From an archaeon (GTDB lineage: Archaea; AGJL01; Methanococci; Methanococcales; Methanocaldococcaceae), in the NCBI GenBank assembly GCA_024278985.1, contig JAJRSC010000005.1, forward strand, positions 11,428 to 75,427: a stretch of DNA of 64,000 bases. Direction: 5' to 3'. The notes under the pieces are model-generated. The model saw only the letters and a program-made list of their open reading frames with translations, made no database searches and had not been told where the DNA came from. Numbering within the stretch: the first letter of the stretch is position 1; each line of letters begins with the position of its first letter. Positions 3,366-37,245 of this stretch are shown in pieces. The translations under genes were made by a program, and so were the position numbers.

Positions 3366-4090
3366 TCTAAAAAGTTAAATCTTCTTTTAATTCCATTATA
3401 CAAATCAATTATATTACCATTTAAAAATGCACTCATTGTATATACAACTCCAGGTGGAAGAATCTCAATTTTATCTCCATTTTTTATAAAATAAAGATTA
3501 TCAAAACTTAACAGGGCTCCAAATATTACACAAGAAAGTTTTTTTATATCTTCTAACTCTTTAACTGGAATAACAACAACAGGGTCATCAGTTTCATCTC
3601 CAACATAACCAAGTCCTTCAATTTCTTTTTTATTAACTGAAGAAGTAGCATTATATCCAAGTTTTTTAGATATAGTTTCAACATATAGGGCCATGTCATT
3701 AACTAAACTTTCCCCTCCATATGTATCAAAAGCAACAATAATAGCATCCCCATATTTAGATATTGCCTTAGTATAGGTATAAGAAATTCCTTCTTTAGCA
3801 TCATCCTTATTTTTTGAGACTCCCTTTAAGTCATCAAAATTTTTAGCATATTTATATAAAATATCATAAACCAATTTATTATGCTTTTCTAAAAGAGTTT
3901 CATGGATTAAGGAAGTGATGACAATATCATCTCCTGTAATATTAGAGACTCTACTTAAAATATTATATTTTTTAAGCTCTTTTAATGAGTTATCTATTTT
4001 TTTTACTATTTCTTTATCTGCTTCAACATCATTATCAAATATATCCACTCCCATACTGACAATATACATAATTTTCACAAAATTATTCAT
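3362..4090 (-). CDS. Conserved hypothetical protein
   Basis: 242-aa ORF with typical codon usage; motifs SNITGDD, AFDTYGGE, GYVGDETDDP; no family recognised. Confidence 0.7.
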   Translation of the reverse strand: MNNFVKIMYIVSMGVDIFDNDVEADKEIVKKIDNSLKELKKYNILSRVSNITGDDIVITSLIHETLLEKHNKLVYDILYKYAKNFDDLKGVSKNKDDAKEGISYTYTKAISKYGDAIIVAFDTYGGESLVNDMALYVETISKKLGYNATSSVNKKEIEGLGYVGDETDDPVVVIPVKELEDIKKLSCVIFGALLSFDNLYFIKNGDKIEILPPGVVYTMSAFLNGNIIDLYNGIKRRFNFLD

Positions 4091-30814: not shown

Positions 30815-31743
30815 AATAGTTCCTTTCTAAGTTCTCCTAAGGTAGTATTTATTTCAGCAAAAGCATTATGCCTATGAATACTCTCAAAATTTATCTGTTT
30901 TATATGAACTTTTGTTTCATCTGGTAGATGGTTGAATTTTTTAACAATTCTGTTTGCCATTTCCCTAACACAATCCTCTACAAATTTAGGGTTAGTATGG
31001 CTTTTTTTAACAACATATGCCTCATCTACTCTCTTCAATATTCCATAAATTTCTGCACTCATTGAATTTTTTATTATATTAATAATATCTAAAATCTCAA
31101 CATAATAATCTTCTGGAATTTCAAGAATTATTTTTCCAATTCCTCTTTGGTTGTGGGTTGCAAAAATAACACTATCCAATATTTTTAAAATATCCTCATC
31201 ACTAAATCCTTTATTTTTTAAATTTTCAATACATATTTCTTTTATTAAGTTCTGAGCACATGGGCATGCAGTTATTCCAACAACTTCTGCTCCTACTATT
31301 TTAGTAATCTTTAAATTATCATTTTCTTTAATTCCTTTAGCCCCTCCAATTATTTTATGAACTTCTTGAGAGATTTTTTTTGAGATTGGACTCTTTTCTT
31401 CTAACATAAAATCACTAATCATTAACACCTCAGCCCTATTTGCATATTCATGTTTCTTAAACAATCTTTTAACAATTTCCTCACATATTGTTTCCATTTC
31501 ATAACTCTCCATTTTTAATGCTTCATCAATTATTTCCTCTATAACTTCTGGATGCCTTGACATATGTATTCCTTTTTGGGAACTTGGTAAATTAACAGAA
31601 ACATCAAAGGTTGGAAGTAATATTATAGGTCTTTTTCCATTTCTTTTTATTCTAACAAGTTTTTTTAAATTAGATATACCAACCTTTGTTAAGGATATTT
31701 TTATATCTGGTTCTATATTTTGTATATCACATTTCCAATTCAT
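30811..31743 (-). CDS. mptA: GTP cyclohydrolase IV (methanopterin biosynthesis)
   Basis: DIQ, KGIHMSR, TACPCA, THNQRG, FVEDCVR, ESIHRHNA. Confidence 0.93.
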   Translation of the reverse strand: MNWKCDIQNIEPDIKISLTKVGISNLKKLVRIKRNGKRPIILLPTFDVSVNLPSSQKGIHMSRHPEVIEEIIDEALKMESYEMETICEEIVKRLFKKHEYANRAEVLMISDFMLEEKSPISKKISQEVHKIIGGAKGIKENDNLKITKIVGAEVVGITACPCAQNLIKEICIENLKNKGFSDEDILKILDSVIFATHNQRGIGKIILEIPEDYYVEILDIINIIKNSMSAEIYGILKRVDEAYVVKKSHTNPKFVEDCVREMANRIVKKFNHLPDETKVHIKQINFESIHRHNAFAEINTTLGELRKELL

Positions 31744-32956
31744 TTTTATCCCCTAATAAAACATCAATTAACTCTCTTGATAGTCTATAATAAACATTGT
31801 TTCCTTTTCTTTCTTTATAAATATATCCCATTTCATAAATATCTGAAAGATGTGTTCCAATAGTTCCAGGAGATTTTTTTAAATATTCTGAAAGTTGTGT
31901 TACTGTTGTACTACCTCCAAGTTTTGCCATAGCCTTAACAATTTCAGATTGAGCAGGAGTTAAATGGTTTAAAATCTGATGTCCAATACTTATTCCCAAA
32001 GAATGTATTGCTTCACTAACAATTTTCTCATCTATTTTATTTAAGTTCTTTTTTATAGCTATTGATATAGATTCTGAACATGTCATTATTATTTTTCTTG
32101 GTATCCCATCACATAATTCAACAATTTTATCAATTGCCTCTCTAGTAAATGGTTCAAATTCTTCAGCCCCTTCTATATGAGCATCTTCTAATCTTCTCCT
32201 AATTAAGTCATATGATTCTTCTGTTGAAAGAGGAGGCATATTTATAATCTTTGGAATTCTATCCTTTATAGGTGGAGATATTTTAGTTAGGTCTTCCATC
32301 AATGTTGGAGAACCTGCTAAGAATGTTAATATTCCTTCTTCATATAAAAAAGAATGGAAAAATTGTAAGAGTGATAAACAACTTTTCTTAGCAAATTGGT
32401 CAGCTTCATCTATTAAGATTATACATAATTTATTCCTATCTTTAACTTCATTAATTAAAAATTCTAAATCCCTCTCTATTCTCTCTCTTGGATAATGTAT
32501 AGGAACTTTATCTCCATAGTTGTTTAATTTTTTGTACATATCAATTATTTTAGAGGAATACTCCAAATAATCAGATTTTATTGTTCCATTTATTGTAAAT
32601 AAATTTTCTGTTAAAATATTGTATAGTAATTGGATTAAAAACTGTCTTGGAGTTATTTGTGATGCTGTAAGTTCTACGACCCAATGACCTTGTTTTTTTG
32701 TAGCATAGTATATAATATTAAGCATTGAACTTTTACCAATTCCTTTAGTTCCTACAATTGCTGCATTGGCAACACTACCATGCATTGCTGACCCTAAAAT
32801 TTCTCCAATTTCTCTTAACTCACTAACCCTTCCAACAAAAAATTTTGTGTTTCCTCTAATAGGCTTTTCTGAAAATGGATTATACTTTAATTTAAGTTTA
32901 TGCATAGTGTTTGTTATCGACCTTGCCGATTCTTGTATAAATTCAATTGGGTCCAT
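31727..32956 (-). CDS. AAA+ ATPase with C-terminal winged helix (MJ0774-like; divergent Cdc6/Orc1-like architecture)
   Basis: NPF...FVGRVSEL, Walker A GTKGIGKSS, Walker B ILIDEAD, KDRI, DGIPR, C-terminal HTH (TVTQLSEYLKKSPGTIGTHL..IYEMGYI). Confidence 0.85.
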   Translation of the reverse strand: MDPIEFIQESARSITNTMHKLKLKYNPFSEKPIRGNTKFFVGRVSELREIGEILGSAMHGSVANAAIVGTKGIGKSSMLNIIYYATKKQGHWVVELTASQITPRQFLIQLLYNILTENLFTINGTIKSDYLEYSSKIIDMYKKLNNYGDKVPIHYPRERIERDLEFLINEVKDRNKLCIILIDEADQFAKKSCLSLLQFFHSFLYEEGILTFLAGSPTLMEDLTKISPPIKDRIPKIINMPPLSTEESYDLIRRRLEDAHIEGAEEFEPFTREAIDKIVELCDGIPRKIIMTCSESISIAIKKNLNKIDEKIVSEAIHSLGISIGHQILNHLTPAQSEIVKAMAKLGGSTTVTQLSEYLKKSPGTIGTHLSDIYEMGYIYKERKGNNVYYRLSRELIDVLLGDKNELEM

Positions 32957-33577
32957 AAACTCACCACTAAATTACTATCGTAATTAGAATATATGCACTT
33001 CGAAAATTAGAAACTTTCTATTTTAGAATTTCGTCAATTAACTAAATTTAAATCTATAAAATAATTTTTTATTTCTTTTAAAAACGTGAATATAATTTTA
33101 TTACATTAAAAATATTGTGAATATAATTTTATTTTTTTGTATTTTATATTAATAATCCCTCAGAAATAAACTTTAATAATTTTACAATAAATATATAAAC
33201 TATTCTTATGAAATAAAGTTTTTTTTAATTCTTCTCATGAGAATAAAAAATACATAAGTAAATATAAATTATCATGAATCTAACATTTTTATAATATATA
33301 AACTATGAATCAAATTTTATTATAGTTATAACAAGTATAAAATATCTGAGATAAAAATAAAATAAAAAAAGAAATCATTTTATATTAGAAATTATGTTGA
33401 GTTTTATCAAATCTATAAAAAATTGAAAATTATTTTCAATATTAACATAGTAATAAAAATCCATAAATTTATGATAGTAAATTATAATATGAATCTAAAG
33501 GTATTTATATGATAAAAAGAAAAAATAATTGAGCAACTGTAAAGATAAAATATAAAATTTTATTAAAAAAATAAAAA
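32957..33577. other. ~620-bp AT-rich divergent intergenic region with repeats; candidate replication origin/regulatory region
   Basis: GTGAATATAATTTTATT at 33086-33102 and 33117-33133; ATGAATCWAA at 33274, 33305 and 33489. Confidence 0.45.
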
Positions 33578-33589
33578 TTGGTGATTAAT

Positions 33590-34117
33590 ATGGAAAGATT
33601 GCCATATGAGGTCGTATCAACTATATTCAGAAAAGCCATTTTACACTATTTAGTAATAACCGGACAAGTATTTCCTACAAAATTATCCAAAGATTTGGGT
33701 ATATCAAAAGGACTCTCATCAGGGTTTTTAAGACTATGTAACGCTTTAGGTGTAGTAAAAAGAGAAAGAAACAAACATAAAGTTTTATATTCACTAACGG
33801 GTAAAGGAGTGGCAGTTTTAAAAAGATTAGCGCCCGAAATATTTGATTTAAGTTTTAGTGAGGTTTTCGAAACACTTTCGAAAAGTAAGTTTTCTACTAA
33901 ACATTACCCATTAGCCAAGTTAGGATTTAGAATAGAGTATGAAGAAGATAACTTCAAGGGAGTGACTTTTTACTTTTATGACTATGATAACAACCTTTTA
34001 GGAACGGTATATAGGAATTCTCAGAATATTTGGTGGTGTAGTATATGTAAAAAAGAGGCATGTAAGCATATCGATTACGCCAAAAAGCTATATAATAAAT
34101 TGAAAAATATAAATTAA
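33590..34117 (+). CDS. wHTH protein with C-terminal SWIM-like Zn finger (MJ0773-like)
   Basis: GGTGA RBS before ATG 33590; N-terminal ArsR/MarR-like HTH (PTKLSKDLGISKG...YSLTGKG); C-terminal WCSICKKEACKH. Confidence 0.8.
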   Translation: MERLPYEVVSTIFRKAILHYLVITGQVFPTKLSKDLGISKGLSSGFLRLCNALGVVKRERNKHKVLYSLTGKGVAVLKRLAPEIFDLSFSEVFETLSKSKFSTKHYPLAKLGFRIEYEEDNFKGVTFYFYDYDNNLLGTVYRNSQNIWWCSICKKEACKHIDYAKKLYNKLKNIN

Positions 34118-34120
34118 TAA

Positions 34121-34497
34121 TTTTCGAGTTTTCGAGTTGCATGTATGTATATGCCACGGTTGTGTATATAGAAAATTTTTAGAAAAAAATTATCACAAAA
34201 ATTTTAGGCAGTAGTATGCTCTTTTTTAGTTTAGATAATACAGTATTTTAGAGATTTTATAAAAATGTCAACAAATATTTTTTTGTTTTTGTGAAAAATA
34301 ATAATTTGACATTATTATATTTTATAATTTTTATTTTATTTTATTTTTTTAATTTAACAAATAAATTTTTTATAAAATTCTTTTATTGTACAAAAACAAA
34401 AATTAATAAAAAATTTTTGTTGTGATAATTTTGGTTTATGTGTTTTGTATATCTTTCCCTTAACCATATACATACATGCAATTCGAAAACTCGAAAA
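34121..34497. repeat. 377-bp non-coding element bounded by 33-bp inverted repeats (32/33), with in-register inner inverted repeats and an AT-rich core
   Basis: TTTTCGAGTTTTCGAGTTGCATGTATGTATATG (34121-34153) vs CATATACATACATGCAATTCGAAAACTCGAAAA (34465-34497); AAAATTATCACAA (34186-34198) vs TTGTGATAATTTT (34420-34432). Confidence 0.9.
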
Positions 34498-34600
34498 CCT
34501 TATTTAAAAAGTGATTATATTTATGTATCAACAATACACAAGTGTTTTTAAATTTCAAAAAAATAGTAATAAAACATTTACCTTAAAATAGAAATATTTC

Positions 34601-35638
34601 CTATATATCACTCGAAAACTCGAAAATACAGCAGTCTAACAGAAATAGTGATATAAAAGAATTGTATTTATTTTTTTTGTATTTCCTCAATAATTCTATA
34701 AACTTAGGAGTATTTTTTTTCTTTAATTTAAACCTAATCTTACCTCTAACTTTGTATTTTGCTAAAATACCCATATTACATAAATCATTTAAGTATTTAT
34801 ATAGTGTTATATATTTAAAATCTACTTTGTTATAAATATCTTCAATTTTAAAACTTTTTAGTTTAATAACTATTTCAACAAGCTTTTTATATTTTCTATC
34901 AACTATGTAGGGAAGTATTTTAAGCCATGGAATTTTTAATTCTCTAATTGTTTTTAACTACCTTTTACAGTGTTTTAATATTATTTCAATTACTTCTAAA
35001 TTACCATTTGTTATATTATAAAGATGTTCTGCTACTTTTCTACTAATACAATAGCCAAGTTTTTTAGCAAAGTATCTAATAACTCCAATAATATTTATTA
35101 TTCCTTCAGGAAAATGTTTTAAAACTTCTTTATGGCACTCTATAGGATACCTTAGAACAACACTTATATTATTTTTTCTTAGTTCTTTAACAAATCTTAT
35201 AAAACTCTTTTTATAGTTCCATTTTCTAATGTCATGAATATCCAAAACAATAATTGGATTTATTGATTTTAATATAGCTAATAACTTACCTCTAACTTTA
35301 TAAAAATCCCAATTTTTGATATTGATAAAAAACTCCTTTATAGCCTTAAACCATGCCTTTTTAGCTCTATAATGTTTTTTAAAATATTTTTTTTCTACAA
35401 TATAATTAAATAAATTTTCAAACCATCCAGAATTTTTATTAACTAAATAATATTTATCTTTTAATAAAAATGCTAATCTTAAAATTATCTTTTTAATGTT
35501 TGGAGTTCCCAATACTCTAAATATTGGAAATTTGTTAAAATAAAATTCACCACCCTCCTCTAAAATATTCTCTCTATGAGTTGGAAATAAATATAATCCA
35601 TTAAAAAATTCTTCAGGTATATCTTTAATTATCATCAT
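34601..35638 (-). CDS. Degenerate ATPase-like protein with C-terminal wHTH (MJ0772-like); in-frame TAG at 34958-34960
   Basis: Frame stays open 118 codons past the TAG (LKTIRELKIPW...FKIEDIYNKVDFKYITLYKYLNDLCNMGIL...) to TAG at 34601; PIIVLD and LYNITNGNL resemble Walker B and helical motifs; no Walker A. Confidence 0.65.
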
Positions 35639-37166: not shown

Positions 37167-37245
37167 TGGTAGCGGGGGGAGGATTTGAACCTCCGATCTC
37201 CGGGTTATGAGCCCGGCGGGATGGACCTGGCTACCCCACCCCGCT
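37167..37245 (-). tRNA. Initiator tRNA-Met(CAT)
   Basis: Reverse complement AGCGGGG...CCGGGCTCATAACCCGG...GGTTCAAATCC...CCCCGCTACCA; A1:U72 pair and three G-C pairs in the anticodon stem. Confidence 0.95.

Follow-up and report, generated by a model that had tools for sequence, protein, structure and literature searches.

In a 64,000-nucleotide stretch of archaeal DNA (contig JAJRSC010000005.1 of assembly GCA_024278985.1; hereafter the window, with positions counted from its first letter), we studied a 377-bp symmetric element that probably forms the core of the origin (oriC) from which a Methanocaldococcus-like archaeon replicates its chromosome. Initiation of replication in the Methanococcales has been called "an intriguing unknown," in an order whose origin is described as not recognisable (Sarmiento et al. 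2014, PMC3984812), and a later review presents the same organisms as having very divergent orc genes and no genetics (Ausiannikava & Allers 2017, PMC5333045); their origins so far are in-silico predictions only. An earlier note, made from the letters of this DNA, had offered an origin-like reading of spaced binding sites around an unwinding element, and our analysis favours it: the element occupies a single locus, its place and size are conserved, it consists of boxes and linkers, and Orc/Cdc6-like genes lie on both sides—Mc-pRIP to the left and the gene of a protein that we call p345 to the right. Among the hallmarks of an archaeal oriC, we found inverted boxes with an AT-rich stretch, an Orc1/Cdc6-family neighbour and a single conserved locus, and we did not find the canonical consensus of the origin recognition box (ORB) or mini-ORB. 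Going by its sequence, the element appears to fit the plan of archaeal origins, in which two ORBs enclose a DNA unwinding element (DUE).

The outer arms of the element are 33 nt long and 97% complementary, with 311 nt between them, as originally described. Their sole mismatch sets G against T on the plus strand, which in a plus-strand RNA would become a G-U pair. In the box formed by each arm, the octamer TTTTCGAG stands twice in tandem before an alternating ATGTATGTATA tract. The two inner pairs reported on the same axis are both in register; the 13-nt pair (AAAATTATCACAA at 34186-34198 and TTGTGATAATTTT at 34420-34432, coordinate sum 68618) is exact at 13/13 positions, whereas the 10-nt pair, which shares the axis of the arms (ATATAGAAAA at 34166-34175 and TTTTGTATAT at 34443-34452), matches at 9/10 and not, as had been stated, at 10/10. 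The claimed AT-richness of the core is borne out, with 83.6% A+T at 34154-34464 and 90% at 34230-34420 against a window mean of 72.6%, and 100-bp segments of the latter interval rank within the 0.2% least stable of the window in helix stability. The interior is without an open reading frame (ORF), a tRNA scan of the element found no tRNA, and promoter and terminator scans gave no matches above chance; the sigma-70 consensus is inapplicable to archaea. To the right of the element, at a distance of 2.7 kb, is a gene for tRNA-Met (37167-37245, minus strand).

The box is confined to this locus. With up to one mismatch, the terminal 15-mer has three matches in its own assembly (1.107 Mb in 30 contigs, 85.8% complete), all of them here, and because of this confinement we regard the symmetry and the box as beyond chance. 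Two of the box copies at the locus, both unpaired and lying outside the 377 bp, had been missed before; the third copy matches the outer half of the arm exactly at 34610-34627 and is oriented as the right arm, and the fourth is degenerate (Table 1). A 30-nt degenerate box pattern (at most one mismatch) has exactly one forward and one reverse match in 16 of the 17 genomes of the genus, and the reversed pattern, used as a control, has no match in those 17; the one genome without a box match, G004, is 81% complete. In the other family of the order, the strict 30-nt pattern is matched in 10 of 23 genomes. Searched against one genome per species (∼185,000 species), the exact pattern occurs in seven stretches, which belong only to records named Methanocaldococcus, Methanothermococcus or "Methanococci," and a scan of viral contigs gave no matches. 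Box-like sequences of other kinds occur around the locus in some relatives. Two genomes have an extra exact box core past the 3' end of Mc-pRIP, at a distance of ∼1.2 kb (G009:C1:697677-697691 and G015:C1:1120017-1120031), and the window has none at the matching position at up to two mismatches. In several genomes of the genus, a box-like 15-mer, TTTCGATATTTCGAA, recurs where the p345 gene encodes the winged helix (for example, L035 at oriented position 3743-3758, the G013 block at 3389 and the G008 block at 2833); the p345 gene of the window has no match at up to three mismatches to the 16-mer or up to four to the 15-mer core.

To place the element in a wider context, 6.7 kb around Mc-pRIP was compared in 28 of the 30 relatives with a full-length Mc-pRIP match, leaving out G006 and G034, whose contigs end beside the Mc-pRIP gene. 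In 26 of these 28 loci, which represent two families, the inverted box pair stands directly after the stop codon of a gene for a winged-helix/SWIM-like protein, and in 26 the gene order Mc-pRIP(-)/winged-helix-SWIM(+)/element/p345(-) is kept. Inverted boxes around an AT-rich stretch were also found in 28 further elements. The length from core to core was measured in 29 elements, those of the window, G008 and G013 among them; it is 360-389 bp in 28 of these, G026 being the exception with 641 bp. The order-wide consensus of the box is TTTCGRGTTTTCGAR, then three or four variable bases, then (C)ATGTATGTATA. Most loci carry, in addition, a third copy ∼165 bp to the right and another copy near the Mc-pRIP start. 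The DNA of the third copy is translated as ..IFEFS.. in the genus, whereas other genera read it as ..FRVFG/E..; since the same DNA is thus read in different frames, it is the DNA and not the peptide that is conserved.

Within the genus, an alignment of 13 sequences shows nearly invariant arms, variable stretches next to the arms and a poorly conserved AU-rich interior. Only the ATTATCACAA pair of the two inner pairs is conserved in relatives, where it takes the form of the 10-mer ATTATCRCAA at a nearly constant distance from either edge (Table 1) and occurs in the two members of genus g3 too; the other pair falls in a variable linker. The right inner box is mostly part of a 15-bp dyad, TTGTGATAATCACAA, in relatives. 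A symmetry test in 10-nt bins showed the arms alone in relatives, the register of the inner boxes being off by 1 nt. Since the linkers between the conserved boxes vary in sequence but not in length, we conclude that the nested symmetry is real and selected, and on the strength of this alignment pattern the boxes look like spaced protein-binding sites.

Table 1. Features of the symmetric element and its surroundings, in coordinates of the window
Feature	Coordinates	Strand	Description
Left outer box (type B, ORB-like)	34121..34153	+	TTTTCGAGTTTTCGAG + TTGC + ATGTATGTATATG; same place in 26/28 relatives' loci
Right outer box	34465..34497	-	Inverted copy of left box, 32/33
Left inner box	34189..34198	+	ATTATCACAA; offset 67-69 from left edge in 15/15 genus elements; 2/2 in genus g3
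Right inner box	34420..34429	-	TTGTGATAAT, inverted ATTATCACAA; offset 68-70 from right edge in 14/15 genus elements
AT-rich core, candidate DUE	34230..34420	.	90% A+T
Third box copy, unpaired	34600..34627	-	TTTTCGAGTTTTCGAG + TGATATATAGG; overlaps 3' end of p345 gene
Fourth box copy, degenerate	32987..33013	-	TTTCTAATTTTCGAA + GTGC + ATATATTC; 31-57 bp upstream of Mc-pRIP start codon
Array of five direct type A repeats	33078..33498	-	TTWKATTCAYRAT..; starts 33078, 33109, 33266, 33297, 33481
Mc-pRIP	31727..32956	-	409 aa; divergent Cdc6/Orc1-like AAA+ ATPase with C-terminal ArsR-type winged helix
Winged-helix/SWIM-like protein	33590..34117	+	175 aa; ArsR/MarR-like winged helix and C-terminal beta domain
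p345	34604..35638	-	345 aa; predicted Orc1/Cdc6-like fold with degenerate P-loop, lid and winged helix

The neighbouring genes strengthen the case. Mc-pRIP lies 1.16 kb from the element, with one gene between, and is 68-92% identical among 30 relatives of the order. Its Walker A (GTKGIGKS) and Walker B (IILIDEAD) motifs are both intact, and it matches the families ATPase_2, AAA_16, AAA_22 and HTH_5; against TIGR02928 it has an E-value of 5.8e-10 and 38.6 bits, which does not reach the family cut-off of 181.3. DoriC 5.0 (PMC3531139) and Gao 2014 (PMC4009838) give this family, that of MJ0774, the name Mc-pRIP and treat it as a distant Cdc6 homologue. The gene between Mc-pRIP and the element, whose stop codon falls 4 bp before the left box, encodes the winged-helix/SWIM protein, which has an invariant C-terminal WC..C....C.H motif (SWIM-like). 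It was found by tblastn in 24 of the 28 loci, to which a profile search added G025, G029 and G030; a structure search returned generic ArsR/MarR winged helices alone, none at an E-value of ≤0.001. The intergenic region between these two genes carries repeats of a second kind, the type A array, whose spacing of ∼31/157/31/184 bp (pair, pair, single) recurs in relatives across the order.

To the right of the element, an in-frame TAG at 34958-34960 interrupts the p345 gene, which encodes 226 aa before this codon and another 118 aa beyond it. A sense codon (GAA, GAG, GAT, GAC, AAT or ATA) occupies this position in 26 of 26 relatives, which encode a single protein of 341-402 aa, and the TAG may be a genuine nonsense mutation, stem from an error in the assembly or be read through. 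The element does lie between convergent gene 3' ends, as first noted, but the right-hand gene ends at ∼34604 instead of 34958 and overlaps the third box. In the source annotation, p345 is a "transcriptional regulator" or hypothetical. No family in Pfam or NCBIfam was matched over its cut-off; the weak matches were to Hda_lid (E-value, 0.11) and to winged helices, and a sequence profile searched against PDB sequences gave winged-helix-level matches only (E-value, 0.28 or worse). For the G001 orthologue, an AlphaFold2 model derived from an alignment of 25 sequences had a predicted local distance difference test (pLDDT) score of 82.6 and a predicted template modelling (pTM) score of 0.77. The only PDB matches by Foldseek at an E-value of ≤0.001 were the archaeal Orc1/Cdc6-DNA complexes 2qby_A (4.5e-4) and 2v1u_A (6.6e-4), that is, Sulfolobus Cdc6-1 and Aeropyrum ORC1 on origin DNA, and the next matches were human, fly and yeast subunits of the origin recognition complex (ORC). 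The model thus suggests an Orc/Cdc6-like domain order for p345, in which the succession of AAA+ domain, lid and C-terminal winged helix is found at fold level only. The consensus of its P-loop, LATPSLKKT, is missing the glycines, and there is no intact Walker A (GxxGxGK[ST]). All 23 p345-homologous clusters that we found carry Methanococcales names or none.

From this anatomy, uniqueness, conservation, gene neighbourhood and fold similarity, we infer how proteins may be paired with sites and how unwinding and initiation might follow. The two inverted 30-33-bp boxes (TTTCGRGTTTTCGAR-n4-ATGTATGTATA) and the inner 10-mers ∼67 bp in frame a core of ∼220 bp with ∼90% A+T. In the proposed mechanism, the outer boxes would be this lineage's counterpart of origin recognition boxes and would be bound by the divergent Cdc6/Orc1-like initiator Mc-pRIP, alongside which p345, with its degenerate P-loop, may bind as well. 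The inverted layout would lead to two head-to-head initiator assemblies; MCM would then be loaded on either side of the core, and the core would melt. Accessory or regulatory proteins, for which the winged-helix/SWIM protein is the obvious candidate, could bind to the dyad boxes inside the element and to the five repeats of type A, and the box upstream of the Mc-pRIP start codon would allow autoregulation.

A number of findings weigh against the assignment of the element as oriC. Searches of the literature gave no experiment showing, in any of the Methanococcales, that the element is bound or unwound or that replication starts there. The helix instability of the core is not distinctive, since the region next to Mc-pRIP and several other intergenic regions of the window equal or exceed it. 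The TM-scores of the p345 matches are low (0.18-0.26, with 0.18-0.21 over 337-386 columns for the top two), so that the likeness is one of domain order and local folds and not of rigid superposition. The Methanococcaceae ORB motif of Ori-Finder 2, TT[TA][GT]ATTCA[TC][GA]AT[AT]T[AT]T[AT] (PMC4164010, Table 1 therein), is unmatched within 34121-34497 at up to two mismatches, and the "Common" ORB motif of the same program, TCCASTKGAAAYRAAGGGGT, has no matches in the window at up to three. Mc-pRIP is unlinked to the element in 2 of the 28 loci, being 446 kb away in G008 (G008:C1, element at 864856-865233 and Mc-pRIP at 1311242-1312447) and 192 kb away in G013 (G013:C1, 105374-105918 and 297330-298538). 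Nine or ten genomes of the order are without all three proteins and the box, and four of these genomes are 96-99% complete. Finally, the coincidence of compositional skew with the element in G009 covers only 1.2 of 1.665 Mb, and in G013 the global minima of GC disparity, purine/pyrimidine (RY) disparity and gene orientation are at 767-770 kb, with the element at 105.4-105.9 kb.

The skew evidence is, on the whole, mixed, in that G009 shows a coincidence with the element and G013 does not. For G009 (source name, Methanocaldococcus jannaschii), skew was computed over the first 1.2 Mb, and the cumulative G-C minimum, at 691,655, and the element, at 693,632-694,007, are 2 kb apart; other extremes near the locus are the amino/keto (MK) disparity maximum at 686,171, the RY minimum at 706,095 and the gene-orientation minimum at 705,785. 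This extreme is of the origin type by the bacterial rule, and the GC-disparity result agrees with the Z-curve prediction reported in PMC3531139. In G013, for which the whole genome was used, the orientation-corrected skew at third codon positions (GC3) has three shallow minima of about 2 standard deviations, at ∼50-125 kb, 750 kb and 1200 kb. Gene order is scrambled between G009 and G013, with syntenic blocks of at most 19 genes, and the skew may therefore be off equilibrium. The global minimum of G013 coincides with a small intergenic array of clustered regularly interspaced short palindromic repeats (CRISPR), with 8 repeats and a period of 72-77 (G013:C1:767934-768495).

The two rearranged genomes help to define the conserved unit. 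In both G008 and G013, the type A repeats, the winged-helix/SWIM gene, the element, p345 and CbiL remain one block, and Mc-pRIP adjoins an unrelated gene with neither type A nor type B motifs nearby, the breakpoint being right at the Mc-pRIP start. A single inversion of 192 kb, broken at one end between Mc-pRIP and the type A region, would fit the layout of G013. The conserved unit is thus the cis block and not its linkage to Mc-pRIP. In the order as a whole, the profiles of p345 and of the winged-helix/SWIM protein match the same 30 of 40 genomes, and those genomes also carry Mc-pRIP. The genomes without the three proteins and the box are G004 and, from genus g2, G017, G020 (with a weak partial match), G031, G033 and G036-G039; G034 has Mc-pRIP alone of the three, at a contig edge. 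In the four of them that are 96-99% complete (G017, G020, G031 and G033), a search with the Orc1/Cdc6 model gave no match over the cut-off. Because the losses amount to few events on the tree, this co-occurrence is suggestive only. A bolder idea, which we put forward as a doubtful one, is that the Methanococcales might start replication not with a lone Cdc6/Orc1 but with a module of three proteins, Mc-pRIP, p345 and the winged-helix/SWIM protein, on a two-part origin. The parts of that origin would, no more firmly, be the symmetric B-C...C'-B' element and the type A array. If this were true, the module would be a prokaryotic analogue of the hetero-oligomeric ORC with catalytically inert subunits, its cis-trans cassette would stay together even though the Mc-pRIP gene moved hundreds of kilobases, and the sublineage without the whole cassette would initiate replication by yet another route.

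The main rival explanation starts from the published predictions. The Methanococcaceae motif of Ori-Finder 2 has five matches in the window, all on the minus strand and all between the Mc-pRIP and winged-helix/SWIM genes; as none falls in the element, the published motif corresponds to another repeat, that of type A in the adjoining region. The box of the element is lineage-specific and unrelated to canonical ORBs. According to the Ori-Finder-Arch preprint (10.64898/2026.08.15.744077), the oriC of M. jannaschii fits an ORB(-)/DUE/ORB(+) plan and the family-specific motifs have been extended, and its authors, or records in DoriC, may already use this box. It is conceivable, though in our view unlikely, that the true origin lies next to Mc-pRIP, in the intergenic region 32957-33589 that holds the type A repeats. 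The element would then be an accessory site at which the DNA does not open, such as an operator or titration site for the flanking winged-helix proteins or a centromere-like partition site. Beyond the motif matches, the spacing of the type A repeats is conserved in relatives, the region is as AT-rich (85.5%) and unstable as the core of the element, and it travels with the block in G008 and G013; moreover, the SWIM protein has a winged helix similar to those of ArsR-type regulators, including the archaeal centromere-binding AspA, albeit generically (E-value, ∼0.05-0.07). However, the type A repeats all point in the same direction, the inverted-box/DUE plan is missing there, and the region must house two divergent promoters, and these might by themselves account for the repeats. 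The boxes of the element are the longest, carry the most information and are unique in the genome. A type B box is also found in the type A region, so that the two regions look like one system, and the type A array may be an auxiliary part of the origin region.

Returning to the element as an origin core, three other explanations of its symmetry can be weighed, all with little chance of being right. One is a structured RNA, in which the 33-bp stem would close a long AU-rich interior and concerted changes in the arms would be compensatory. The plus strand does fold at -103.8 kcal/mol (z = -11.1 against shuffles), the lone mismatch would be a G-U pair, and arm variants (G/A at core position 7) mostly change jointly in both arms across genomes. 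Yet we hold this explanation to be quite improbable: the z-score follows from the inverted repeat itself, Rfam gave no match to the element at an E-value of ≤1 (two chance-level snoRNA matches lie elsewhere), the interior is poorly conserved, and arm differences in G003 and G014 are uncompensated. Two more conserved positions hold the box without a partner, often with the variants seen in the arms. An AU-rich fold of this kind would, furthermore, be unstable in a hyperthermophile.

We give even less credence to a terminus-associated site, for example, one for dimer resolution or a fork barrier. Such a site would suit the position between convergent genes, and the global skew minimum of G013 is 2-3 kb away from the position that faces the element across the chromosome (105.6 + 664.1 = 769.7 kb). 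In G009, however, the skew minimum, an extreme of the origin type, is at the element itself, Orc/Cdc6-like genes flank the element, and known dif sites are ∼28 bp long, compared to 377 bp here. The least credible explanation is a mobile-element relic fixed at this site—a miniature inverted-repeat transposable element (MITE) or the ends of an insertion sequence (IS), with 33-bp terminal inverted repeats—which would account for the long terminal inverted repeats and the AT-rich, ORF-free interior but not for one inverted pair per genome in 16 of 17 genus genomes, all three box copies of the assembly at one locus, the same syntenic place and size across two families, the lack of viral-contig matches, and the absence, already observed in the earlier note, of a target-site duplication (the flanks differ, with ..ATTAATAA to the left and CCTTATTT to the right). 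The MITE that had been considered possible there can be set aside, as we saw neither dispersed copies flanked by target-site duplications nor absence from orthologous loci. An active or recent mobile element was rejected on the grounds of a single locus per genome, synteny and the missing target-site duplication; the element may be an ancient, domesticated one, which would leave its present function unaffected.

For an order whose origins have been predicted in silico, the element supplies material for experiments: a ∼30-bp genome-unique box, a conserved inner box and a defined 377-bp fragment. p345 and the winged-helix/SWIM protein add two unannotated candidate partners. The box pattern could locate the origin in new Methanococcales assemblies, and the fragment could underlie shuttle vectors.

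The closest parallel is found in a distant archaeon. In the origin of Halobacterium sp. NRC-1 beside orc7, a verified autonomously replicating sequence, a nearly perfect 33-bp inverted repeat is reported to flank a 189-bp AT-rich stretch (PMC1447603). The plan is that of our element, down to the arm length of 33 bp, whereas the box sequences are unrelated and the spacer of the element is longer (311 bp against 189 bp). Further, the initiator of NRC-1 is a canonical Orc1/Cdc6, in contrast to the highly divergent Mc-pRIP one gene away from the element, and its origin function was established by autonomous replication, whereas that of the element is deduced. The oriC regions of Sulfolobus and Pyrococcus, as outlined in the Ori-Finder-Arch preprint (10.64898/2026.08.15.744077), are similar in having inverted boxes around an AT-rich unwinding region at one or a few loci with an initiator gene nearby. 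Their ORBs are made of a dyad and a G-string, however, whereas the box of the element is without this and has the tandem octamer and the ATGTATGTATA tract instead. The oriC predictions made next to Mc-pRIP (Zhang & Zhang 2004, DoriC 5.0, Gao 2014, Ori-Finder 2 as well as Ori-Finder-Arch) share the neighbourhood and the MJ0774-family initiator with the element, as far as PMC3531139 and PMC4009838 describe them, and the Methanococcaceae motif of Ori-Finder 2 is the type A repeat next door, not the box of the element. MITEs resemble the element in their terminal inverted repeats, their AT-rich non-coding interior and their length of a few hundred base pairs, but the element is single copy, is without a target-site duplication and is syntenic across an order. 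Set beside these systems, the element would work like an archaeal oriC by its plan, with a box unrelated to canonical ORBs and an unusual set of initiators.

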